A stretch of DNA of 64,000 bases from Alphaproteobacteria bacterium (GTDB lineage: Bacteria > Pseudomonadota > Alphaproteobacteria > Micavibrionales > Micavibrionaceae), in NCBI GenBank assembly GCA_020443295.1, contig JAGRIJ010000018.1, positions 1,249 to 65,248 of the forward strand, in the 5' to 3' direction. The first letter of the stretch is position 1. The number at the start of each line of letters is the position of its first letter. Positions 286 to 22,858 of this stretch are shown here, one piece after another. A program made the translations under genes and the position numbers. A model generated the notes under the pieces. The model worked only from the letters and a program-made list of their open reading frames with translations. It was not told the origin of the DNA and searched no databases.

Positions 286-1401
286 ATGAAGTTTGTCATT
301 GACCGCGCCGCGCTCCTGAGATCACTGAACCATGTCCAAAGTGCCGTTGAGCGCAGGAATACCATTCCGATCCTTTCCAATGTTCTTATGAAAGCCGAGA
401 AAGGCTCGTTGACTTTGTCCACGACGGATATGGATCTTGAGATTAATGAGACGGTTGCCGCAACCGTTCCGCAAACGGGTGCTACAACGGCTCCGGCCCA
501 CACGCTGTATGATATCGTCCGCAAACTGTCCGATGACTCGCAGGTTGAGGTGATCCTCAATAAGGACGGTACGCAGATGACCGTGCAGGCCGGGCGTTCA
601 GATTTCAAACTCAGTTGTCTGCCTGTCGCGGATTTCCCGGAAATTTCCATTGGGGAATTGCCCGTTTCCTTTTCCATTCCCGCTTCGGAGCTTCGTTCGC
701 TGATCGACCGGACAAAATTTGCCATGTCGACCGAAGAGACGCGCTATTACCTGAATGGTATATATGTACATGAGGCGGAGAGCAGCGGAATTCCCGTTTT
801 GCGCGCTGTCGCTACGGACGGGCACCGTCTGGCCCGTTTCGAGATGCCCTTGCCGGACGGCGCTTCGGGCATGCCCGGTGTAATCATTCCCCGCAAGACG
901 GTTGGCGAGCTTCGCAAGCTGATAGATGAGGCGGCGGATTTGATTAAAGTTTCCCTCTCGGAAAATAAAATCCGGTTTTCGTTCGATCATGCCGTCCTGA
1001 CTTCGAAACTGATCGATGGAACTTTCCCCGACTACCAGCGTGTGATTCCGCAGGGTAATGACAAGGTGGTGGAAGTTGATCCTAAAGTCTTTACGGGTGC
1101 GATCGACCGCGTTTCCACTATTTCCGATGGTAAATCGCGTGCGCTCAAAATTACGCTGCGCGGTAAACAGATGACGCTTTCGGCCAGTTCTCCGGAAGCG
1201 GGCAGTGCGACGGAAGAGATGGAAGTAAATGGCGATACCGATCTGGAGATCGGGTTCAACGCCAAGTATCTTCTGGACATCACCTCGCAGATCGAAGGGG
1301 AAGGGTGCCGTCTGACCATGGCGGATTCGGCCAGTCCGACGATTATTCAGGATAACGGCGATCCGAGCGCCCTTTATGTATTAATGCCGCTGCGGGTTTA
1401 G
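286..1401 (+). CDS. dnaN: DNA polymerase III beta sliding clamp
   Basis: The 371-aa ORF starts MKFVIDRAALLRSLNHVQSAVERRNTIPILSNVLM and ends ...PSALYVLMPLRV, the typical beta-clamp layout. recF follows nearby. Confidence 0.95.
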   Translation: MKFVIDRAALLRSLNHVQSAVERRNTIPILSNVLMKAEKGSLTLSTTDMDLEINETVAATVPQTGATTAPAHTLYDIVRKLSDDSQVEVILNKDGTQMTVQAGRSDFKLSCLPVADFPEISIGELPVSFSIPASELRSLIDRTKFAMSTEETRYYLNGIYVHEAESSGIPVLRAVATDGHRLARFEMPLPDGASGMPGVIIPRKTVGELRKLIDEAADLIKVSLSENKIRFSFDHAVLTSKLIDGTFPDYQRVIPQGNDKVVEVDPKVFTGAIDRVSTISDGKSRALKITLRGKQMTLSASSPEAGSATEEMEVNGDTDLEIGFNAKYLLDITSQIEGEGCRLTMADSASPTIIQDNGDPSALYVLMPLRV

Positions 1402-1445: not shown

Positions 1446-1985
1446 TTAACGGTGGTGCGCGGGAGCAGTCGTAATCAGTTCGACGACAGGATCGTTTGTC
1501 CCGTTGAAGGTGATGGTTGCCACACGGCGCCCATGATCGTAGCAGGTGGCGATGAATGCCTGTGTCGTGGTTCCTGCGCCGCTCGAGCTTCTTTGCGCGG
1601 AGCCTCTTTCGGCCGAGACGGCTCCCCGTTGGGGCATGGCCACTCCGCCTGCTGTTGCTGCAGAGTTCGTGGTTGTCGCAGCCGTGCTGACATAGTTGCT
1701 GGATGCCGTCAGGCAGTCCTCAACGCTTGCAATGGGCAAGGGCTGCGGTGGCGTGCGATGCGCGGAGTCAGCATCTTGTGATGTGTCAGCTGCTGCCGTT
1801 GTGTCAGGGGGCATTGATACGGTGTTGAAGACAGAACGTCCGCCAACCTGTACCACGACCATGTCCGCATGGACCTTTGTCAAATCCGGTTTCGTTTCCT
1901 GTGCTGAAGCGTCGCCCGGGGCTGTAACTACGAGAAGAGCGCTCAGACCGGCGGCGGTAATGAATTGTTGTAACTTGTTAGCCAT
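1446..1985 (-). CDS. Secreted Ala/Thr/Ser-rich hypothetical protein
   Basis: The second ATG, at 1985, is preceded by GGGGGA. There is a Sec-type signal (MANKLQQFITAAGLSALLVVTAPGDASAQE). No family recognised. The plus-strand ORFs over the same DNA look like shadows. Confidence 0.55.
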   Translation of the reverse strand: MANKLQQFITAAGLSALLVVTAPGDASAQETKPDLTKVHADMVVVQVGGRSVFNTVSMPPDTTAAADTSQDADSAHRTPPQPLPIASVEDCLTASSNYVSTAATTTNSAATAGGVAMPQRGAVSAERGSAQRSSSGAGTTTQAFIATCYDHGRRVATITFNGTNDPVVELITTAPAHHR

Positions 1986-2118
1986 GGGTTTTCCCCCCAT
2001 TCGTTAAAAATGAAACATATATACTATATGGAAATAATATAGACTTGCTTAAGAAGTCAAATCTTTATCTAGCCATATAAGGCCTCCCTTTTAGCATATT
2101 TCTTGATTAAAAAGAACC

Positions 2119-3252
2119 ATGGCGTGGATTCGAACTCTCAAACTGCACTCTTTCCGATCGTACGAAACGGCGGAATTGGCTGATCTCCGGGCGGGATTGC
2201 TGATTTTTTACGGGCCGAACGGGGCCGGGAAGACCAATATTCTCGAGGCTGTTTCGCTGCTTTCCCCCGGGCGGGGGTTACGCGGGGCCCGGCTGGGGGA
2301 GATCCAGAGGCAGGGAGCGCCAGATTCGTGGGCTGTGGCGGCGGAGGTTCAGACCGGGCAGGAAGCTGTCCGGCTGGGGACGGGGCTTGATCCGGAGAGG
2401 GGGGCCGGACCCGAAAAACGGGTCGTGCGGGTGAACGGGAAAACGGCTAAGGGGCAGAACGCTTTGGCGGATTATTTGTCCTGTGTCTGGCTGACGCCGC
2501 AAATGGACGGGCTTTTCCTTGAATCCTCGCGAGAGAGACGGCGGTTTCTCGACCGTCTTGTATTCGGGTTCGATCCCGGTCATTCGGGACGGGTCACGCG
2601 TTATGAGAATGCGCTGGCGCAGCGTTCCCGTTTGTTGCGGGAAGGGAAAGGCGATCCTTCGTGGCTTTCGGGGCTTGAGCAGCAGATGGCGGAAACGGGG
2701 ACAGCCATTGCGGCTGCGCGGCTGGATTTTGCTCATCGGTTACAGGCGGCCTGCAGATCTGCCGAGAACGACCATTTTCCGCTGGTCCAGCTTTCTCTGG
2801 CCGGAACTCTGGAAGAGGCGCTGAAACACGGGAAGGCACTGGATGTTGAGGCTGAATTCCGTGACGCTCTTTCGCAGAGCCGGAGAAAGGACGCGGAAAC
2901 GGGAGGGGCCGAGGCCGGGCCGCATAAGAGCGATCTGGAGGTTGTTTATGCCGACAAAGGGATGAATGCCGCGCAGTGTTCAACCGGGGAGCAGAAGGCT
3001 CTTTTAACCGGTCTTATTCTTGCTCATGCCCAGTTAATCGCTGCCGAACGTGGCGAGCCGCCGATCCTGCTTCTTGACGAGGTTGCGGCCCATCTGGATG
3101 AATCGCGAAGGGCTGCCCTTTACGAGATTTTGGAGGGGCTGAACGCGCAGGTGTGGCTGACCGGAACGGATCAGGCTGTTTTCGATGCTGTGAGGAAGCG
3201 CGCGCATTTTTTTACTGTAAGAGAATCACTTATTGAAGCGGTCGAGACATAA
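2119..3252 (+). CDS. recF: DNA replication and repair protein RecF
   Basis: N-terminus MAWIRTLKLHSFRSYE...FYGPNGAGKTNILEAVSLL carries the Walker A motif. The SMC-like signature is CSTGEQKALL and Walker B is ILLLDEVAAHLD. Confidence 0.93.
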   Translation: MAWIRTLKLHSFRSYETAELADLRAGLLIFYGPNGAGKTNILEAVSLLSPGRGLRGARLGEIQRQGAPDSWAVAAEVQTGQEAVRLGTGLDPERGAGPEKRVVRVNGKTAKGQNALADYLSCVWLTPQMDGLFLESSRERRRFLDRLVFGFDPGHSGRVTRYENALAQRSRLLREGKGDPSWLSGLEQQMAETGTAIAAARLDFAHRLQAACRSAENDHFPLVQLSLAGTLEEALKHGKALDVEAEFRDALSQSRRKDAETGGAEAGPHKSDLEVVYADKGMNAAQCSTGEQKALLTGLILAHAQLIAAERGEPPILLLDEVAAHLDESRRAALYEILEGLNAQVWLTGTDQAVFDAVRKRAHFFTVRESLIEAVET

Positions 3253-3365: not shown

Positions 3366-4265
3366 ATGCTTGGATTACAGCACGTCAGAATTACGCCTTC
3401 GATGCTCAAGCTCGCCTGTGCGGTCGATGAGTTCAAGGGCGCGTGGACCGCTCTTGAAAACCATACAACATCGCTACAAATTTTGGGAGATGTGTCCAAT
3501 TTCGGCCGGAATTTAAAAGAAATCGCAGGAGCTTGGCAGAACAAGGTGATCGATGAAGAGATGGTCTGCAAGCTGCATGGGCTTTTCTCGGGATCGAAGA
3601 AAACAAGTTCTTATCGCAGCGGGCCGCATACGCTGAATATCTACCAGAATGATGCGCTGGTCGGCGTGCTTGAGACGGCGACTCCCGAAGAGGTGCGGGC
3701 GCTTATGCCTCGTCTGATCCATTGGGTAACGGAAGCGCTGGAAAAGGGGGAAATTCATCCGCTTTTTGTCATTGCCATTTTTACAGCGGTTTTCCTGCAA
3801 CTTTGTCCGTTCGAGAAGGGAAACCAGAAACTTGCGAGGATTCTCGCGGTTTTACTGCTTCTGAAAAGTCATTACAGCTATGCGCCGTTCAGTCTTCTCG
3901 ATCAAATTTTTTCCGAGAAGGGCGAAGCCTATTTCAACTCCCTGAAACATACGCAGGAGACCCTTGCCGCGGGACGTGTGGATTGGGATGTGTGGATCGG
4001 GTTTTTCCTTGAGATCCTTTGCGACCAGAAGAACGTGCTTCAGGGGCGTCTTGAAAAAGGGCGGCCGGAGATCGCGAACATGCCTTCGCTGTCGACCAAG
4101 GTTCTGCGCCTGTTCGACAAGCATGAGCGGATGAGCATGAAGGAAATTGAGAGGCTTACCCGCGGGAAGCGGTCTACGCTGAAGCTGCGGCTTGGCGAAC
4201 TTGTCGATGAAGGATATCTCGTCAGGCATGGAAAAGCGCGTGCGACCTGGTATTCCCGGGTTTAG
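3366..4265 (+). CDS. Fic/DOC-fold protein with a degenerate active-site motif and a C-terminal winged-helix domain
   Basis: The core reads IHPLFVIAIFTAVFLQLCPFEKGNQKLARILAVLLLL and aligns to the Fic motif HPFx(D/E)GNGRxxR. The changes are H->C, G->Q and R->K. The C-terminus MSMKEIERLTRGKRSTLKLRLGELVDEGYLVRHGKARATWY is wHTH-like. Confidence 0.7.
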   Translation: MLGLQHVRITPSMLKLACAVDEFKGAWTALENHTTSLQILGDVSNFGRNLKEIAGAWQNKVIDEEMVCKLHGLFSGSKKTSSYRSGPHTLNIYQNDALVGVLETATPEEVRALMPRLIHWVTEALEKGEIHPLFVIAIFTAVFLQLCPFEKGNQKLARILAVLLLLKSHYSYAPFSLLDQIFSEKGEAYFNSLKHTQETLAAGRVDWDVWIGFFLEILCDQKNVLQGRLEKGRPEIANMPSLSTKVLRLFDKHERMSMKEIERLTRGKRSTLKLRLGELVDEGYLVRHGKARATWYSRV

Positions 4266-4281: not shown

Positions 4282-7200
4282 TCAGGGCTTGTTCTCGCCG
4301 TCTTCGCTTTTTCCGTCACCGTTCTCGTGCCCGTTTCCATTTCCATTTTTCAGGAGAGAGTCCGCGAGGTCTTCGCCTGCCTTTTTAAGCGTGTCTCCGG
4401 CTTCCTGCGGGAGCGCTGCCGTTTCTGCAGGCGGCGGCGTTGCCGGTTTTTGCGTTGAAAAGATGGCCGGTTTTTCCGGTGGTGGCTGCTGAGCTTCGCC
4501 AGAGGAGGCTGGCGGAGGCGCTGTTGCTGCGGGTGGCGTTACAGGAGGAGCCGGAGGAGGTGTAACGGGCTGCGCTGTTTCCGCGGCGGGCGGCGTTTGT
4601 GCCGCAGGGGTTCCTCCAAAAATTGCAGGTTTTTCAGCAGGGGGCGCCGCTTGTGCTGCTGCCGGAGGAGCGGCAGGCGTTTCCGCCGGCGTTTGTGTTG
4701 CCGGAGCGCTGCCAAAGATGGCCGGTTTTTCCGGTTGTTGTTGAGCTTCGCCAGAAGAGGCTGGCGGGGGTGTCGTTGCTGCGGGCGGTGGTGCCGCAGG
4801 AGGTGTTGCAGGGGGTTCTGCCGGAGATTTTGCAGCCGGAGTTCCCCCAAAGACCGCGGGTTTTTCCGTTGCGGGAGCTGCTGGCGGTGTTGTAGCAGGG
4901 GGGCTGGCCGGAGGCTGTACCGGGGTCTTGGCTACAGGAGCTCCGCCGAAGATCGCGGGCTTTTCGGCGGGTGGCGCTGATACGGGCGGTGGTGCTGCAG
5001 GAGTAGCAGGGGGCGGCGGCGCAGATGTTGTCGGCGGAGGCGTCGTCGATGCCGGAGATTTGCTGAAGAAGGACATCGGCGCGGCCCCCGCTTTTGCCGT
5101 TTCAGCGGTTGCCGGGGCGGAACCGGTTACAGTTTCTGCCTGCTTAACGATTTCAGCGGGTTTTTTGGCGACCAGAGGCGGCGCGGCTTTCTGGGCCACC
5201 TGTGCGACCGGAGAAGAGCCAGAAACAGTGGCAGGCGCAGCCGGTGTCGTTGCGGGGGGTGCGGTCGGCGGAGCAGATGGAGCAGTCGGGCCACCACCAG
5301 ATCCTCCACCCCCTCCTCCTGCCGGCGGGGGGTTGCCCTTGTCATCGGTGGCCGGGATTTCATGGTCGATCGCGTGGATGCTGACCAAGGCGGCGATCCC
5401 GGCATCAACGGGACTGATGCTCGGTTTGAGGCTCTTTTTGAAGCCTTCGTTCATCGCAGCAACTTCCTTGCTGGTTTCGATTGCGACATCGGCGCGCATG
5501 GCTGTCCAGCTCTTGTTGACCATCAGGTCGCGCAGTTTGCGGATGGAGGTGGAGTGTTTGACCACTTCCTCGTCCGGCGGCGGCAGGATCATAAAGCGCG
5601 TGACGCGCATCGCCTTGGCGTGGCCGGGGTTGGAGTAGAAAATCGCGCAGTCGACGACCGTATCGCCGAAGGTAACAACCGCCTGACCTTCGCGGAAACC
5701 GCGCAAGCTGTCATAGCTGGCGCGCGGGCGAAGCTGAACGCCGGCCTGCTTGGTGTCGTGATAAGCGCCGAATTCCGTCCCGCCCGCCATCTGGAAGCCT
5801 GAAACCTCCGTGACCATCGCGGAACCCACGGTTTTTTCGAAGAAGTCCTTGGTTTCGGTCGGGTCTTCGAGCTTGCCGAAAATCTTGATGTTACAGTTAC
5901 CGACAATCGAGTTCGCTTCCTCGCGGACCCGTTTTTTCATCGCGGGCAAATCCTGACCGGAGAAGACGAGACAGAAGCCCAGAGAACGGGCCTGAGCGGC
6001 CATAACCGCCATCCCCTGCGCGGTATAGTAACCGACCTCGTCGAAGACGGTCATGAACGGAGTTGCGGAGTGTGTCGGCTTGTTCTCGATAACGGTTTCA
6101 GAGGAACCTTCAACGGTGGAGCCGAGGGTCGAACCCATCATCCCTTTCATGGTCGCGGAGACGATTTTACCGAGGTTTGCGACCTCGTCGCCGGACTTTT
6201 CAAGGGCCGGGATCAGAACGATCAGGATCCGGCGGTTCAGAACCACGTCGACCATATCGACGTCTGCGGCCTGCGTATCGAAGATGTAACCGTAATCATC
6301 GCCCAAAGATTGCAGGGAGCGGGTGAACTGCATCGCCAGATAACCGTGCTGCTGGGATGCCGTTTCCGTGTTGTATTGCGGCGTATCGGGGCCGGGCGGT
6401 TTGACTTTACCGTTGTCGTCGTACGCGTCGTTTATGAAGCCCGGAAGGGTCTCAAGATATCCTTTAAGACCTGCACGGGTCGTTGTCGGCACTGCCTCGT
6501 CCCGAGAGAGTTTAATGACGTTCGCCAAAGTCAGGTAATCACGAATGGAACGGACCGAGAGAGGGATGTCCTGATTATCCCGTTTCCATGTCAAAGCGGG
6601 CATGATGGAACTGATCAAGGACACCGCCCGTTCTTTCCACATTGCGTTGTCGCCTTCCGCTTCGGGCATCAAGCTGACAAGCATGTTCACGAGGTAGGAC
6701 GCCGATCCGCTGGAAAACGGGTTCATTGTATTCGACGGGGCACGTACGTCCGCGTTTCCGGTCATGTAGTTCAGGACCAGTAGGTCGTCGTCTCTTCCAA
6801 ATCGGCGGACCAGCGACGAGAGGGAGGACCAGAGGTCTGTATCGGCTTTACCGTCGACGTATACGAAGCCGGACCCCCAGGCGAGTGCATTGGTCACCAT
6901 GGATTTCAGACCTTCGGTTTTACCGGCACCGGTCGTTCCGAGGTAGAGGATATGCGTTCGTGCGTCGGAGTTCGTAAACCAGACTTCCTCGTTGGTTTTT
7001 TCCACATTACCGAGATAGAGAATACCCTCGGCCTTGCCGGGCTTGCCGCCACGGCCATTGTTCATGTCCTTGAATTTCGATCCCTTCGGGAGTTTGAAGG
7101 CGAGGGTTCGGTCCCGGCCGCGCAGCCAGAGCCAGTAGAGAAACATGATTGCGACAATCAGATCTCCGAAAGTCTGCGCCCATTCATTGATGTAAACGGC

Positions 7201-7335
7201 CATGGCTGTGAGCATGAAAATAGAGGTCGAGTAGGACGGGTTGGACATCCCGTCGGCGACACGAACCGAAAGCGGGCGCACGTCCCGCAATATGGCTTCA
7301 TGTTTATGCTCGTACTTTCTCTGGTCTAATGCCAT
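4282..7335 (-). CDS. dotL: Type IVB secretion coupling protein, DotL/IcmO (TrbC of IncI) family, with a long low-complexity C-terminal extension
   Basis: There is an N-terminal membrane anchor, Walker A LGTTGAGKTEGL and Walker B FMTVFDEVGYY. Blocks VVLNRRILIVLIPALEKSGDEVANLGKI, QHGYLAMQFTR, ARSLGFCLVFSGQDLPA and NIKIFGKLEDPTET match my recollection of Legionella DotL. Confidence 0.85.
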   Translation of the reverse strand: MALDQRKYEHKHEAILRDVRPLSVRVADGMSNPSYSTSIFMLTAMAVYINEWAQTFGDLIVAIMFLYWLWLRGRDRTLAFKLPKGSKFKDMNNGRGGKPGKAEGILYLGNVEKTNEEVWFTNSDARTHILYLGTTGAGKTEGLKSMVTNALAWGSGFVYVDGKADTDLWSSLSSLVRRFGRDDDLLVLNYMTGNADVRAPSNTMNPFSSGSASYLVNMLVSLMPEAEGDNAMWKERAVSLISSIMPALTWKRDNQDIPLSVRSIRDYLTLANVIKLSRDEAVPTTTRAGLKGYLETLPGFINDAYDDNGKVKPPGPDTPQYNTETASQQHGYLAMQFTRSLQSLGDDYGYIFDTQAADVDMVDVVLNRRILIVLIPALEKSGDEVANLGKIVSATMKGMMGSTLGSTVEGSSETVIENKPTHSATPFMTVFDEVGYYTAQGMAVMAAQARSLGFCLVFSGQDLPAMKKRVREEANSIVGNCNIKIFGKLEDPTETKDFFEKTVGSAMVTEVSGFQMAGGTEFGAYHDTKQAGVQLRPRASYDSLRGFREGQAVVTFGDTVVDCAIFYSNPGHAKAMRVTRFMILPPPDEEVVKHSTSIRKLRDLMVNKSWTAMRADVAIETSKEVAAMNEGFKKSLKPSISPVDAGIAALVSIHAIDHEIPATDDKGNPPPAGGGGGGSGGGPTAPSAPPTAPPATTPAAPATVSGSSPVAQVAQKAAPPLVAKKPAEIVKQAETVTGSAPATAETAKAGAAPMSFFSKSPASTTPPPTTSAPPPPATPAAPPPVSAPPAEKPAIFGGAPVAKTPVQPPASPPATTPPAAPATEKPAVFGGTPAAKSPAEPPATPPAAPPPAATTPPPASSGEAQQQPEKPAIFGSAPATQTPAETPAAPPAAAQAAPPAEKPAIFGGTPAAQTPPAAETAQPVTPPPAPPVTPPAATAPPPASSGEAQQPPPEKPAIFSTQKPATPPPAETAALPQEAGDTLKKAGEDLADSLLKNGNGNGHENGDGKSEDGENKP
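4456..4965 (-). repeat. Five degenerate in-frame repeats encoding EKPA(I/V)FG(G/S) separated by P/A/T-rich spacers, inside the dotL 3' end
   Basis: The repeat units start at codons 791, 824, 869, 901 and 954 of the 1017-aa ORF. The SSGEAQQ(Q/P)P(P)EKPAIF context occurs twice. Confidence 0.8.
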
Positions 7336-7352
7336 GTTTTAAATCTTTTTCC

Positions 7353-7931
7353 TTAATTCTGCCTTCTGCTCAGGAAATCGTCTGCAGACACGGGAACTCC
7401 TGTTTCTTCCGAGGATGCGGAGGAGGAGGTTGCTTTTCTGCTCAGGATACTGTCGGTTGATCTGGGAATTGAAAACGACCATGCCATAACCAGCAGAAGA
7501 ATCATTACAACGGCCAAAACAGCGCCCGCTTTTCCACCGTGATGTGCCTCTCCAGAGGAAAATCTTGCCGGAGAAGCATTACTGATCGCGGGTTGCGAGT
7601 TGTTATGGTTGGCCGCACGGATAGCCTGAGGGCGGATTTTTCCGTGCGCGTTTTCCAGAGCATTCGAAGTGGCCATCAGCGCCTGAATGGCACTGGCGCG
7701 GTCTTCGTAGCTCGCGATATCTTCCACTTCTCCTTTGAGTGTTTTGAGGCAGAGGTTGAAGCGATTATTTTTCACGTCTTCCTTGACTTGCAGGGCCGAG
7801 GATTTGGCTTGTTCCAAGTCCATTTGCCAGACAACAGGGGTGTAGGCATCGGGAAGCGAGAGGATGAGTTTTCCATCGACGATGGATGCGCTGGAGACGA
7901 GAGGTTGATTTTGTTTTTTTGCCATTTTCAT
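7353..7931 (-). CDS. Hypothetical single-pass membrane protein between dotM and dotL
   Basis: The 192-aa ORF lies 45 nt after the dotM stop and 17 nt before the dotL start. It has a roughly 120-aa N-terminal soluble part, a TM segment GAVLAVVMILLLVMAWSF and a Ser-rich tail. No family recognised and no obvious SD. Confidence 0.6.
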   Translation of the reverse strand: MKMAKKQNQPLVSSASIVDGKLILSLPDAYTPVVWQMDLEQAKSSALQVKEDVKNNRFNLCLKTLKGEVEDIASYEDRASAIQALMATSNALENAHGKIRPQAIRAANHNNSQPAISNASPARFSSGEAHHGGKAGAVLAVVMILLLVMAWSFSIPRSTDSILSRKATSSSASSEETGVPVSADDFLSRRQN

Positions 7932-7976
7932 ATCTTGTTTCGGATGAAGGTTTTAAAAAGTAGTACTTAAATTCCG

Positions 7977-9188
7977 TTAGATCGCCTTCTTCACACCCTT
8001 TTGTTTTGATTTGCTGTAATCCAATGCCGGGATCGGTCTTGCGCGATCCGAAGTCATGTATTCGATGATGGTCGTTACCGCATCCTGCACTTTTGGAACG
8101 GGGATCGGACGCTGTGTCAGTTTTTCCGCTTTATAATGGGCCATCGCTCCCAACGCTTCGGTATGATAGGACTGGCGGCCCATATTATTCAGCGGGTACC
8201 ACAAGGTCCGGTCATGAGCGCGCAGCCACAAGAACTGGGAGGGGGAGAGAACTCCGCCTTCTTCGCGGGCGTAAGCCAAGCCCTTCATCAAGGCTGTGGT
8301 TTCGAAGGCGTGCTGGTTTACCACGGCCAGCGTTTTTCCGGCGAGATCCTTGTCCTTCAGAATGTTAACGGCGTATTTGAAGAGCTTCCGGTCTTTTCTA
8401 AGATCGAGTCCGTTTTTGAAAGACCAGCACTTGGCCAGACGTCCGAGCATATCGTCGGCTTCCGCCCGCTTTCTGGCTGCTTTCAGACAGAAGGCGGCCA
8501 AGAGAACCTGTTTATAGTCTTCAAGGCTGTTTGGTCCTTTCCAGCGTTCGCCGAGTTGTTTTACAAAGGCTTCTGCCGTTTCTTCCTGGTCAATCTTGCC
8601 GTCCGGTACGGAAATCCGGTTATATGCCAGCCATTCTTCCGGTCCCAAGGCTTCAGCAAACGAAGGCAGGTCGGCGGGAACAGGCGAGCCGGGCGGGCGA
8701 GTCGGCTGGTTAGAAGGATTAAATTTTACGAAAGGCGCGATGACCGGGAAAATGTTGGCTTGTCTTTCTATCAGGCCTTCCAGATTGAATCTACGGCGGT
8801 AGTGCGTCCGCGGTCCGAGGAACATACACCACATCGCACCAAGTCCTAGTAAGCTTACCAGCGGCATTCTCCATGGCTGCATGGCCATGGCGTTGAAGAA
8901 TGAAAGATGTTTGAAAACCAGCTTTCCCTTAGGGTATTTCGTTATATTGTCTATGTGGTCGTGGAAATTGAGTTCTTTACCGTTCCAGAACACCTTGTAA
9001 TCGCTGTCCATGAACCAGGAGATTGTCCAGACTTCCGCATAACGGATCCAGCGGACCATTTCCCTGACTTCACCTTGGAAGAAAAACCAGAAAATCCAGA
9101 TCAATACGGCAAAGATGAACAGCATAATCGTCCAGCCGATCGCACTGTCATGTAGAGAATCAGGACTCTGTTGTTGTCCGCCAGCCAA
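7977..9188 (-). CDS. dotM: DotM/IcmP (TrbA of IncI)-like inner-membrane protein
   Basis: The 403-aa ORF has a Gln-rich N-terminus followed by the TM segment IGWTIMLFIFAVLIWIFWFFF and a second hydrophobic segment. A large soluble domain follows. Its size, topology and position upstream of dotL fit IcmP/DotM. The assignment rests partly on context. Confidence 0.6.
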   Translation of the reverse strand: MAGGQQQSPDSLHDSAIGWTIMLFIFAVLIWIFWFFFQGEVREMVRWIRYAEVWTISWFMDSDYKVFWNGKELNFHDHIDNITKYPKGKLVFKHLSFFNAMAMQPWRMPLVSLLGLGAMWCMFLGPRTHYRRRFNLEGLIERQANIFPVIAPFVKFNPSNQPTRPPGSPVPADLPSFAEALGPEEWLAYNRISVPDGKIDQEETAEAFVKQLGERWKGPNSLEDYKQVLLAAFCLKAARKRAEADDMLGRLAKCWSFKNGLDLRKDRKLFKYAVNILKDKDLAGKTLAVVNQHAFETTALMKGLAYAREEGGVLSPSQFLWLRAHDRTLWYPLNNMGRQSYHTEALGAMAHYKAEKLTQRPIPVPKVQDAVTTIIEYMTSDRARPIPALDYSKSKQKGVKKAI

Positions 9189-14092: not shown

Positions 14093-14734
14093 ATGACCGA
14101 TATCTTTGATCCGAACCAGTACAAAGAAGTCAAAATCGAAATCAACCAAAATATGCTCACCAAGGGGGGCGAGATTAACCTTGCCGCCAAGGACCCGACG
14201 TTGCAGCGTCTTCATATCGGGGTCGGCTGGGACCAAAACCAGTTTGATACGGACCCGCTGGACGTTGATATCAGCTGTTTTATGTTGAACCGGCAGGGAA
14301 AGACGCGGGTTAACGAGGATTTTATTTTTTACAATAATTATGAAGGGACCGATAAGGCGGTTATTCACAGCGGTGACAACCGTACGGGCGCCGGGGACGG
14401 GGACGATGAATCCATGCTGGTTCATCTGCCGTTTGTACATTTCGATATCGTTCAGCTGATGTTCGTCCTTTCCATCTACAAGGGCGAGGAAAAGGGGCAA
14501 AATCTGGCCAAAATGAGAAACGGGTATTTCCGTCTGGTCAATAGCGATACGAATATCGAAATCGTGCGTTACGAGCTTGCCGATGACACGGAGGAACGTC
14601 CTGAAACGGCCATGCTTGTCGGGGTGCTCAACCGCGAAGGACCTAAATGGCACTTCGTGGCCCTTGGTGAATCCGTCGAGGGGGGGTTGCAGCGGGTTGC
14701 CGAAGGTTACGATATTATCGTCGGCAGCGCCTGA
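14093..14734 (+). CDS. terD: TerD family stress / Ca2+-binding protein
   Basis: LHIGVGWDQ...DVDISCFML...DFIFYNN...HSGDNRTGAGDGDDESMLVHL is the canonical TerD signature. Confidence 0.9.
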   Translation: MTDIFDPNQYKEVKIEINQNMLTKGGEINLAAKDPTLQRLHIGVGWDQNQFDTDPLDVDISCFMLNRQGKTRVNEDFIFYNNYEGTDKAVIHSGDNRTGAGDGDDESMLVHLPFVHFDIVQLMFVLSIYKGEEKGQNLAKMRNGYFRLVNSDTNIEIVRYELADDTEERPETAMLVGVLNREGPKWHFVALGESVEGGLQRVAEGYDIIVGSA

Positions 14735-15475: not shown

Positions 15476-16570
15476 ATGCTAAGAGAGCATAGCCTTTCGA
15501 GACGCTTTTTTCTGGCACTTTTTTTTGCCGGATTGATCGTTTCCGGACTTGTTTCCGGAAGCTCTCTTCTTTTTGCGCAGGAACAGTCAAAAGAGAGTGT
15601 CGTTGAAATTAAAGCCCGTCCTGTGGACGCAAAAACCCTTGTTTCCGGTCCTTATAAAATCAGTTTATGGGGCGTTGACAGCGTTTCTACGGGCAATGCG
15701 ATTTTCGAGCTTGGTGCGCGTTCCGTTCTTGAAGAAAAGATCGATCAGAAACCGATCGAGTGCACAATCAAGAGCCGGAACCAGAACGATATTGTGGCGC
15801 AGTGTGTAAATTCCGAAGAGCAGGATCTCAGTCTTTTCATGCTCCAGCAAGGGTATGTCGTCGTTAACCGCGAGGTCGTCTACGGATCGATTTACGAGAA
15901 TCCTTATATCGAAGCCGAGAAAAATTCTCAAAAGCAACGTCGGGGGTTATGGTCGCTCAATAATCAGCAGGAATCGGGCGGCGGTTTCGAAGGCGGGCAA
16001 AGGCTGATTATCGGCGGGGTTATTTTTATCGCGATTGTTCTGGCCGCTCTGGCGGGGATTACGCTTTTTATCATGAGAGGTTTTCGCAACGTTGTTGAAG
16101 TGCAGAACCAGAGCATGGATCTGGCCAGCAAGGAACGGCTTTTGCGTGAGAAGGAAAAGTTCGTTGTTGCCAGCATGATCGATGCCGAAGTGAGGACAAA
16201 CAAGACCAAGATCGAAGCGTATCTTTTGATGTATGACGAGTTGCTGAAGGATCTTAAGGACAAGACCCGCGAGCCCAAATACCGGAAGTCGGGCGATATT
16301 ATTCAGAAACAGCCTGCTTTAAGCCGGGCCGTTTTTGACGGGAATACGAGCAAACTCGATCTATTGGGACAACATACGGCCAGTGATATCATCCATTATT
16401 ATGCCCGGATCAAAACGGTTCCCGATTACGTAGAGCTTGAGCCTGATGCTCCGTTGGCGGAGGCTATCGGAATCGTTGAGGGTGCTGTCGATGCGGCCCG
16501 TAAAATTGATGTGATTTCCGATAAGCTTCTGGACAAGTTTGCTGCGATGCTGCTGGTTCAGGGTAATTAA
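15476..16570 (+). CDS. Membrane protein with an N-terminal SNase/OB-like periplasmic domain and a cytoplasmic C-terminal domain
   Basis: There is a signal/TM segment [34 protein letters not shown]...[13 protein letters not shown]...RRGLW resembles thermonuclease-like domains. A second TM follows ([24 protein letters not shown]). Catalytic residues were not verified. Confidence 0.5.
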
Positions 16571-21174: not shown

Positions 21175-22476
21175 ATGAAGATATTATTGGTGGGATCAGG
21201 GGGCCGCGAACACGCGCTGGCCTGGCGTCTGAAAAACTCAAAAAGCTGTACGAATCTGTGTTGCGCGCCCGGAAATGCCGGGATCGGCGGTATTGTTGAC
21301 GAGATCGTTGATCTCAAAGTGGAAGATCTTGAAGGAATCACAAAGTTTGCAGTTGAAAATGCGGTCGATCTGGTTGTTGTCGGGCCGGAAGCGCCGCTGG
21401 TGGCAGGGCTTGCGGATCGTTTGCGCGAGAAAGGGATATCCGTCTTCGGGCCGAGCAAGAAAGCGGCCCGGGTTGAAGGTTCGAAAGGGTTTATGAAGGA
21501 TTTATGCCGTACGTACAAGATTCCTACGGCGGCTTACGGGCGGTTTTCGAATATGAAAGAGGCGCGGGGCTTTATTGAAGAGATGGATGCCCCGATCGTC
21601 GTTAAAGCTGACGGCCTTGCTGCAGGGAAGGGCGTTGTGATTTGTCAGACCCGCGAGGAAGCCGTACGCGAGGCGCAGGACATGCTGGAAGGCGGGGCGT
21701 TCGGGGATGCCGGAAAAGAGATCGTGGTCGAAGAGTTTCTGGACGGCGAAGAAGTCAGTTTTTTTGCGTTATCGGACGGCAAGACGATTCTTCCCCTGAC
21801 TTCAGCGCAGGATCACAAGCGTGCCGGCGATGGCGATACCGGGCCGAATACCGGCGGCATGGGGGCGTATTCTCCCGCGTACTTCATGACGGAGGAGCTG
21901 GAGCGTAAAATTCTCGGCAATATTATCGAACCGACGATCAAAGGCATGGCCAAAGAAGGGTGCCCTTTTACCGGCGTTCTTTTTGCGGGACTCATGGTCA
22001 AGGACGGGGAACCCAAATTGCTGGAGCATAATGCGCGATTCGGGGATCCGGAGTGCCAGACGCTGATGATGAGGCTCGAAGGGGATTTTGCGAAAATCCT
22101 GAAAGCTGCGGCTGATGGAAAGCTTGAGAGCGTTAAAGACGAGCTTGGCTGGTCGCCGGAGACATCGCTTTGCGTGGTCATGGCGGCGAAGGGATACCCG
22201 GGATCGTATGAGAAGGGAACGCCGATCAGCCGTCTGGATCAGGCTGCGCAAGTGAATGACGTACAGGTTTTTCACGCCGGGACGGCGCTTGCCAAGGATG
22301 GCGGGATCGTCAGTAACGGCGGGCGCGTTCTGGGGGTTACGGCAAAAGGCAAAACTGTCGCGGATGCCCAGAAGCGCGCGTATGAAGCGGTTGACCGTAT
22401 TGACTGGCCGGAGGGTTTCTGCCGCCGCGATATCGGATGGAGGGCTCTTAAGGCCCAGCAGGAGGAGGCGGCCTGA
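21175..22476 (+). CDS. purD: Phosphoribosylamine-glycine ligase
   Basis: [19 protein letters not shown]..., ATP-grasp motifs, and GGRVLGVTA near the C-terminus. Confidence 0.95.
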
Positions 22477-22492
22477 AGAGGGCTGTAAAGTT

Positions 22493-22858
22493 ATGGTTTG
22501 GCATGTTGTTCAGATCAATTGCGATGCGATCACGGATGTGAAAACGTTTCATCAGGAGTTTGCCGCGGCATTCGGTTTTCCCAATGATTATGCGGGAACC
22601 AAGGAGGCCTGGCTTTTGCGTCTTGCGAAACTGGACGATGTAAATGACCGAGTGACCGAGGTGTATTGCGATCCCGGCGAAGTGATTACCGTGGAGCTTT
22701 TGAATGTCGCTTCTTTCGCCCGGCGCTGTCCGGAAGAATTTACGTTTTGCGTCGAAGGGATTTCCTATATCAACTGGGCGCGACTGGAAGAGGGCATGAA
22801 GCCGATTCTTGCGATCGCCTTTTACGGCGTGCAGACATACGACCTGTCCGGGTTCTAG
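22493..22858 (+). CDS. Barstar-like (ribonuclease inhibitor family) protein, orphan
   Basis: The 121-aa ORF starts at ATG 22493. VVQINCDAITDVKTFHQEFAAAFGFPNDYAGTKEAWLLRL follows the barstar pattern (I..I.....fH......fP.yyG.N.DAl.D.L). The 200-aa ORF in the track includes out-of-frame purD overlap. Confidence 0.5.
   Translation: MVWHVVQINCDAITDVKTFHQEFAAAFGFPNDYAGTKEAWLLRLAKLDDVNDRVTEVYCDPGEVITVELLNVASFARRCPEEFTFCVEGISYINWARLEEGMKPILAIAFYGVQTYDLSGF

Follow-up and report, generated by a model that had tools for sequence, protein, structure and literature searches.

A predicted disordered tail with multiplied phenylalanine motifs on the DotL-type coupling ATPase of a Micavibrio relative

The genes considered here lie on a stretch of 64 kb, hereafter the window, from contig JAGRIJ010000018.1 (assembly GCA_020443295.1), the host of which is a relative of Micavibrio, i.e. 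an alphaproteobacterium of the Micavibrionales. Attention was directed to the long C-terminal tail of a DotL-type protein that is encoded on the minus strand together with dotM and an intervening gene, orf192, the three genes being co-directional and forming an isolated cassette (4282-9188) amid housekeeping genes near the start of the chromosome (Table 1). The neighbours of the cassette are dnaN and recF in the window and gyrB, argS and greA in M. aeruginosavorus HCB189 (L066 8007-12598). The open reading frames (ORFs) of the window that were scanned gave no match to any Dot/Icm family beyond the dotM/dotL cassette; neither the remaining components of the machine (DotO/IcmB, DotB, DotG, DotH, DotC, DotD and DotA) nor DotN or the adaptors turned up among them. 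A few were left without a match, and the other matched ORFs are of the housekeeping type (glgP, putA, purD, xseA, NAD-glutamate dehydrogenase, cytochrome oxidase and others). Orthologues were drawn from 80 genome loci, with core identities of 68-96% and nearly all labelled as Micavibrio, Alphaproteobacteria or Rhodospirillales metagenome-assembled genomes (MAGs), the HCB189 locus (71% core identity) being among them, and from a further 80 loci in a more distant metagenome set. The dotM gene is upstream of dotL in every one of the 80 genome loci.

Judged by sequence comparison, the 1017-amino acid (aa) protein is a type IVB coupling ATPase of the DotL/IcmO type. Residues 8-664 align with residues 9-665 of Legionella pneumophila DotL (PDB 6sz9_A; phmmer, E 4e-151, 508 bits), and the similarity spans the membrane anchor, the nucleotide-binding domain and the all-alpha domain. 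This match, together with the dotM gene encoded upstream, upholds the DotL homology proposed in an initial annotation of this DNA. The protein also has a hydrophobic N-terminal membrane segment at residues 52-71, a Walker A motif (GTTGAGKT) at residues 133-140 and Pfam matches to TrwB_AAD_bind (5.7e-8) and TraG-D_C (2.4e-8). The best NCBIfam model is TrbC_conju (NF041447), which scores 394.3 bits (1e-117, residues 100-608) against a cut-off of 800 bits; identity as a conjugative IncI TrbC was rejected on the basis of this score and of the context, there being no relaxase or conjugation genes in the 64 kb.

Beyond the core the protein continues as a tail of 357 residues, among which are 89 Pro, 81 Ala, 36 Thr and 30 Gly (25% Pro, 23% Ala and 10% Thr). 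A Gly run, a stretch rich in P/A/T/S, two SSGEAQQ(Q/P)P sequences and an acidic end had been listed initially, and all were located where they had been placed. Five copies of EKPA(I/V)FG(G/S) had also been listed; four copies have this form, but the fifth is a variant, EKPAIFST, in which residue 961 is Thr or Ser depending on the strain. Similarly, the figures of 33, 45, 32 and 53 residues that had been given for the spacers are correct as start-to-start distances, whereas the spacers themselves measure 25-45 aa. They contain 24-30% Pro, and the 170-aa array as a whole has just seven Lys or Arg and ten Asp or Glu residues. The placing of Phe in the tail departs strongly from what composition would give, in that KPAI precedes four of the seven tail Phe residues, as against a maximum of two in 20,000 composition-preserving shuffles. 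Three further elements had been overlooked: a conserved island, abbreviated PLVAKKPAEIVKQ, a PMSFF motif, and a terminal amphipathic helix whose helical hydrophobic moment of 0.55 is unmatched elsewhere in the tail (median 0.13).

Table 1 Features of the dotM-orf192-dotL cassette and of its flank. Nucleotide positions are those of the window and residue numbers those of the DotL-type protein.
Feature	Position	Strand	Residues	Remarks
dnaN	286-1401			Window start
recF	2119-3252			
Fic-domain gene	3366-4265	+		
dotL-type ORF	4282-7335	-		1017 aa
DotL/IcmO-type core	5356..7335	-	1-660	phmmer against PDB, Pfam, NCBIfam
C-terminal tail	4285..5355	-	661-1017	58% Pro/Ala/Thr
Gly run GGGGGGSGGG	5290-5319	-	673-682	Mixed Gly codons
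P/A/T/S-rich stretch			683-790	
Conserved island SPVAQVAQKAAPPLVAKKPAEIVKQAETV	5128..5214	-	708-736	
PMSFF motif, GAAPMSFFSKS	5056..5088	-	750-760	
Motif copy 1, EKPAIFGG	4942..4965	-	791-798	
Motif copy 2, EKPAVFGG	4843..4866	-	824-831	
Motif copy 3, EKPAIFGS	4708..4731	-	869-876	After SSGEAQQQP (860-868)
Motif copy 4, EKPAIFGG	4612..4635	-	901-908	
Motif copy 5, EKPAIFST	4453..4476	-	954-961	Without Gly; after SSGEAQQPP (944-952)
Terminal amphipathic helix QEAGDTLKKAGEDLADSLLK	4348..4407	-	977-996	
Acidic tip NGNGNGHENGDGKSEDGENKP	4285..4347	-	997-1017	Asn/Gly-rich
orf192	7353-7931	-		192 aa; unnamed; between dotM and dotL
dotM/icmP	7977-9188	-		Pfam DotM_C, 1.4e-49; NCBIfam DotM_IcmP_IVB, 1.1e-48, under its cut-off

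In the AlphaFold2 (AF2) model of the full-length protein, which was built on an alignment of 65 close relatives and from which secondary structure alone was used, DSSP assigned coil to residues 657-976, and the only helix in the tail was at residues 977-995. The best explanation is that the tail is an intrinsically disordered extension of DotL, as the initial annotation had predicted, and it is cytoplasmic, as follows from the topology of coupling proteins with the hydrophobic segment at residues 52-71.

The first matter to be settled was whether the tail is a genuine product of translation and of correct assembly. The protein P0001 (MCB9977298.1; 1014 aa) is 99% identical and has the same five motifs, as do five further members of the cluster (1014 or 1017 aa) that derive from other assemblies; mis-assembly of the repeats, raised earlier as a risk, was thus discounted by the agreement of six independent assemblies. 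Across these seven near-identical sequences, i.e. the window protein and the six others, the 14 variable columns, a 3-residue indel among them, fall without exception in the tail, with none in the 660-residue core and none in the motif cores. The frame of the tail is kept in about 190 orthologues, and in the comparison with the closest species the ~100 gapped columns are all in frame. A non-coding or out-of-frame tail was therefore rejected, on the kept frame, the codon usage of the motifs and the in-frame gaps, and the argument made initially that the tail is translated holds, the tail having in addition a rough dN/dS (ratio of non-synonymous to synonymous substitution) of ~0.1-0.16. The ORFs on the opposite strand (4597-4980 and 4928-5638) are Arg/Cys-rich and Gly/Ala-rich, just as had been claimed.

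The five copies differ in their codons (AAG/AAA, CCC/CCG/CCT, GCG/GCC/GCA, ATC/ATT/GTC, TTC/TTT and GGC/GGG/GGA), the only residue changes being I/V and G/S, and the DNA around them is 62-74% identical. Because of these synonymous differences and this level of DNA identity, the repeats are, on sequence grounds, evidently ancient and maintained by selection at the peptide level. Tandem Repeats Finder recovered small fragments only, since the units are too diverged and too unevenly spaced for that program, and a repeat search recovered them at the same 62-74% DNA identity. One of the repeat families, D5, ties the unit of copy 3 to that of copy 5 (70 nt, 80% identity, 252 nt apart). The tip contains a different kind of repeat, in that NGNGNG (residues 997-1002) is encoded by a microsatellite-like 6-nt unit present 2.5 times at 4334-4348, and the number of NG units varies among L001-L003, the loci of the closest species. 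A BLASTP comparison of the tail with itself gave no match at 1e-3, and when residues 746-1017 of the tail were used by themselves as a query, none of 8000 candidates reached E <= 1e-3, probably owing to composition filtering, so that this search is uninformative as to other proteins with such tails.

The tail was found in all complete orthologues, at lengths of 93-434 aa. Within a pool of 195 non-identical DotL orthologues about half carry the motif, in one to nine copies, and the 387 instances conform to A(58%)-K(87%)-P-[A/S]-[I/V]-F-G(87%)-x-x-P(62%), with K at -1, G at +4 and P at +7. A check had been proposed of whether the number of repeats varies among relatives with EKPAIFG staying constant; the number does vary (three, four and three copies in the closest relatives) and a KP[AS][IV]FG core is conserved, but the leading Glu is peculiar to the lineage of the window protein. 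The motif is specific to DotL tails, since in 2.2 Mb of loci its strict form occurs 118 times in them as against three times elsewhere, and two of the three outliers are pieces of a DotL tail interrupted by Ns.

When tails were placed on a tree of the core, the basal Micavibrionales were seen to have a linker, a single 'G(N)PMGFF(G/S)K' motif, in many cases a 'P(L/I)SWxDL(V/I)' motif as well, an amphipathic helix ('LPKEIxDIIxxAAxxxxKxLFK') and an acidic tip ('DIDAAE'), and the KPxIFG array to be the mark of a derived clade. The group of the window protein (the window, L001-L003 and P0001-P0004) combines 3-5 KPxIFG copies with PMSFF and the helix, both of which it has kept. A larger sister group with 2-7 copies has lost PMGFF and has no terminal helix, and at the end of its tails the acidic tip is preceded by KPAIFGG, not by K.LFK as in the others; because of this replacement, the sequences suggest that the Phe motifs are interchangeable. 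The form 'G(N)PM(G/S)FF(G/S)K' occurs once in most Micavibrionales orthologues, i.e. in most of the 43 without an array and in the clade of the window protein, and twice in L045 and L077. Counterparts of the terminal helix ('..KAGE.L...L(F/L)K' and '..SAKKLN.GL.G') end most of the Micavibrionales tails without an array, as well as those of the window protein's clade and of the wider metagenome clade. The island is nearly identical in L001-L003 and P0002-P0004, and 'PL(A/V)A(K/Q/T)(K/R)P(A/G)(E/D)I' is recognisable in more distant orthologues, whereas a Gly/Ser-rich run stands at the position of the Gly run in many orthologues but not in all.

Selection acts on the short Phe motifs and the terminal helix, and linker length and motif number change fast. 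It could be argued from the same data that the tail is a passive, entropic linker holding the terminal helix off the core, with the KPAIFG units arising as functionless by-products of slippage and duplication in GC-rich DNA. The range of tail lengths and the many in-frame indels would fit such a linker, as would the 252-nt duplication that is visible in family D5, the generality of low-complexity tails in the family (see below) and the standing of the terminal helix as the most widely conserved element of the tail. However, the residues of the motif have been kept while the flanking spacers diverged in both sequence and length, the synonymous differences indicate copies that are old and maintained, strain-level variation is nil in the motif cores, and in one clade a KPAIFG copy stands in place of the very helix that the linker would serve. 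We consider a purely passive tail to be distinctly unlikely.

The wider DotL/TrbC family was sampled as 150 representatives of 50% identity clusters. At least 60 aa follow the core in 137 of these, with a median of 203 aa; the tails are mostly rich in Ala, Asp, Glu, Pro and Gly, and an amphipathic helix is often found at the end. By sequence, then, a long low-complexity tail is a trait of the family, the rule rather than an oddity. The KPxIFG motif itself was found in none of the 150. In the lineages nearest to the Micavibrionales (P0130-P0136; L081, L083-L085, L137 and L159), aromatic motifs of other kinds occupy the same position and are often multiplied: PLSWxDLxG in 2-5 copies, including a 'P(L/M)SWxx(V/L)(I/M)G' form repeated 4-5 times; EPLSWxDL in three; NPF in five, in one lineage; PPPW in 10-16; a single 'PPLYEGDxYAIEDVE'; and DDDLDFSSLFGK in two, of the form 'DDDLDFSSL(F/I)GK' (LDFSSLFGK). 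Arrays of aromatic motifs are a trait of this alphaproteobacterial branch, and KPAIFG is the version of one sub-clade. Members of the Legionellales type share instead a '...SYPP...' module, to which IcmSW binds in Legionella.

In Legionella the DotL tail begins at residue 572, follows DotM and DotN and terminates in a mobile IcmSW module on residues 672-783 (PMC7280309). The assembly of DotL(656-783) with IcmSW and LvgA serves in substrate recognition, LvgA capturing a Phe-anchored effector helix (PMC7251119), and work in Legionella describes the C-terminus as the most variable part of DotL and as probably effector-binding (PMC6761968). In our comparison no part of the window protein aligned past Legionella residue 665, whereas the Legionellales homologue P0158 aligned on through residue 753. 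Since alignment holds to residue 665, the part that contacts DotM and DotN, from residue 572, is retained, and since the alignment of P0158 also takes in the segment that binds IcmSW, the difference is confined to the last module. Hence, of the initial proposal that the docking extension of Legionella is replaced here, what stands is that the IcmSW/LvgA-binding segment (656/672-783) has no counterpart in this protein; the DotM/DotN-contacting part, by contrast, has been kept.

These observations lead us to favour, on balance, a reading in which the tail is a disordered, multivalent docking platform of short motifs on DotL, situated at the position of the IcmSW-LvgA segment of Legionella; that is, the C-terminal recruitment module of the coupling protein would, we infer, have been rebuilt as a disordered array. 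The variable Pro/Ala/Thr linkers would separate one PMSFF motif, five (E)KPA(I/V)F(G) motifs and the terminal helix with its charged tip, every motif being a low-affinity docking site with Phe as its anchor. Should DotL be hexameric, its six tails, with contour lengths of up to ~100 nm, would present ~40 sites round the cytoplasmic entrance of the channel, where partners—adaptors or chaperones, substrates, or perhaps another subunit of the coupling complex—could be captured with avidity and passed to the DotL-DotM core. Copy number would be tuned via duplication and loss of units in frame. The IcmSW-LvgA module and the tail of the F-plasmid TraD protein, with its terminal Phe in the TraM tetramer, provide analogues for docking of this type.

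Several points weigh against this reading and should be borne in mind. The full-length AF2 model is poor throughout, including the ATPase core (mean pLDDT, i.e. predicted local distance difference test score, 49.7), so low values in the tail are not in themselves proof of disorder, for which the argument is the DSSP coil assignment together with composition. The dN/dS values, which are 0.03-0.05 for the core (against L001-L003) and ~0.09-0.16 for the alignable columns of the tail (against the two closest), are rough, dS being near saturation and the alignment of low-complexity sequence uncertain. Two of the ~195 orthologues, P0005 and L055, have tails with a disrupted frame (e.g. 'AGKTGNIWW' for KPAIFGG), which probably reflects sequencing errors in the MAGs or possibly tails that have become pseudogenes. 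Finally, conservation of the motif could stem from a role other than docking, for instance as a protease or modification site.

The composition of the array also brings to mind the FG nucleoporins, and it might be proposed that the tails of hexameric DotL make up, at the channel entrance, a cohesive Phe-Gly meshwork or condensate admitting only substrates or carriers able to bind FG motifs. Four FG motifs and a single FS motif are indeed set in P/A/T spacers of low charge, and multivalency has been preserved in a clade whose members have 2-9 copies. Against this, five motifs per chain are few in comparison with nucleoporins, to which there is no homology, basal relatives have a single PMGFF, sister lineages use motifs based on W or NPF, and spacers so rich in Pro disfavour cohesive gels. 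Such a barrier is highly improbable in our estimation. The acidic end of the tail invites a different proposal, namely that it mimics a type IVB translocation signal and binds either DotM or the DotL channel in cis, the machine being gated until a substrate or a contact signal displaces the tail. Many orthologues do end in acidic residues after a hydrophobic one ('..K.LFKD.....DIDAAE'), recalling the Glu-rich C-terminal signals that bind DotM in Legionella (PMC5802825, PMC7280309). However, the tip of the window protein is Asn/Gly-rich and only mildly acidic, and an auto-regulatory role of this kind leaves the multiplication of internal motifs without explanation; we regard it as very improbable.

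A potential partner of the docking platform is suggested by gene order. In each of the 80 genome loci, and in most of the 80 metagenome loci, orf192 separates dotM from dotL; its 205 homologues are all annotated as 'hypothetical', and it has no Pfam domain. An AF2 model from a 59-sequence alignment (mean pLDDT 78) is confident for residues 10-97 (94-98), which are modelled as a seven-strand sandwich (E14-75) with a capping helix (H78-97), followed by a linker, one transmembrane helix (residues 133-154) and a conserved GVPVSADDFL end. orf192 may encode a new subunit of the coupling complex, as a candidate. Foldseek gave no significant match for it (best E 0.085; TM-score <=0.41 on the target), but the top matches are nearly all of the PH superfold, and include PTB/F3 domains that have been solved with NPxY/F peptides (CCM2, SNX17, Fe65 and ICAP1). 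It could feasibly be, therefore, that a PH/PTB-like domain in the orf192 product reads motifs of the [N/K]PxxF type, and so tethers the tail at the membrane or gathers several orf192 molecules into the coupling complex, and the five NPF motifs in the tail of one sister lineage would be in keeping with this. Apart from the insignificance of the Foldseek matches, however, positive charges are more numerous on the C-terminal side of the transmembrane helix than on its N-terminal side, locus L159 lacks an intervening gene although its tail has SW-type motifs, and the tail motifs vary widely by lineage in spite of good conservation of the PH-like domain. A reader function for orf192 is thus unlikely as matters stand, and is offered as a lead rather than a result.

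The docking platform favoured here bears on a wider question. Micavibrio preys obligately on Pseudomonas and other bacteria, and to our knowledge the choice of type IVB substrates is understood for Legionella only, via the DotL tail that holds IcmSW-LvgA. A protein in which the DotL-DotM core has been kept and the adaptor module swapped amounts to a natural experiment on how recruitment of substrates or partners is built, and KPAIFGG, GNPMGFFGK and the terminal helix suggest themselves as short peptide baits with which Micavibrio adaptors or effectors might be found. Moreover, since multiplied aromatic motifs recur in sister lineages, they may be a general and undescribed feature of type IVB coupling proteins other than those of Legionella. 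A broader generalisation, that coupling proteins outside the Legionellales recruit their partners via fast-evolving arrays of aromatic motifs in a long disordered tail, in place of a folded adaptor module, and that these motifs are read in the Micavibrionales by the membrane-anchored, PH/PTB-like orf192 product, strikes us as quite improbable; were it true, the array and its reader would constitute an undescribed architecture of the coupling complex, resembling eukaryotic scaffolds, in a predator that possibly injects proteins into its bacterial prey. The genome paper on M. aeruginosavorus ARL-13 (2011) reported that evidence of type III or type IV secretion was lacking (PMC3189940), and seems to have overlooked the dotM-orf192-dotL genes. 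In a later survey with MacSyFinder, seven marine Micavibrionales genomes proved to have Dot/Icm-type systems (PMC9418006). Among the papers searched, those naming both Micavibrio and Icm contained no description of a Micavibrio DotL tail.

Other genes in the neighbourhood may be described briefly. The Fic-domain gene is convergent with dotL and adjoins it in 42 of the 80 genome loci. Its Fic motif is CPFEKGNQKLAR, and the C-terminal end of its product resembles a winged helix; since Cys stands in place of the catalytic His, and GNQK in place of GNGR, the protein is probably not an active AMPylase. Between dnaN and recF is a 184-aa ORF (1446-2000, minus strand) with a signal-peptide-like N-terminus and an Ala/Thr/Ser-rich sequence, for which there was no Pfam match and a homologue in one of the 80 genome loci. 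Among the housekeeping genes are also those for a TerD-domain protein (14093-14734, plus strand), a 364-aa protein with a staphylococcal nuclease domain (15476-16570, plus strand) and a barstar-like protein (22256-22858, plus strand); of these, the nuclease, if secreted, would be of interest in a predator.

Disordered scaffolds of spaced motifs are familiar from eukaryotes, where they include the FG nucleoporins and the NPF, DPF and NPxY arrays that are read by EH, appendage and PTB domains. The tail described here is like them in having spaced aromatic motifs within low-complexity linkers and in that a conserved motif occurs in varying copy number, and the sister lineages even use NPF and W motifs, but there is no homology, the protein is bacterial and cytoplasmic, and the motifs per chain are few. 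Other coupling proteins may also be compared. IncI TrbC provides the best NCBIfam match, but the gene in the window sits in a chromosomal cassette beside dnaN and recF. The flexible tail of F-plasmid TraD binds the TraM tetramer through the terminal Phe717 (PMC7555446); like the present tail it is a flexible cytoplasmic C-terminus of a coupling protein, and its Phe anchor enters a hydrophobic pocket and confers substrate specificity (PMC7555446). TraD differs, however, in having one terminal motif (Asp710-Phe717) as opposed to an internal array, and in being a type IVA protein of the F-like subfamily with a relaxosome as substrate, and there is no sequence similarity between the two tails. A further comparison is with the extension of Legionella DotL (residues ~572-783; PDB 6sz9/7ovb, 5x1e, 5xnb and 7bwk), which belongs to the same family, occupies the same position and has the same dotM neighbour. 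The last module of the window protein has no similarity to Legionella residues 666-783 and is without the '...SYPP...' segment, being three times longer, Pro/Ala/Thr-rich and furnished with KPAIFG repeats and one predicted helix, and orf192, between dotM and dotL, is a gene extra to the Legionella arrangement. In both cases, nonetheless, a flexible C-terminal module hangs off the coupling complex (PMC7280309).

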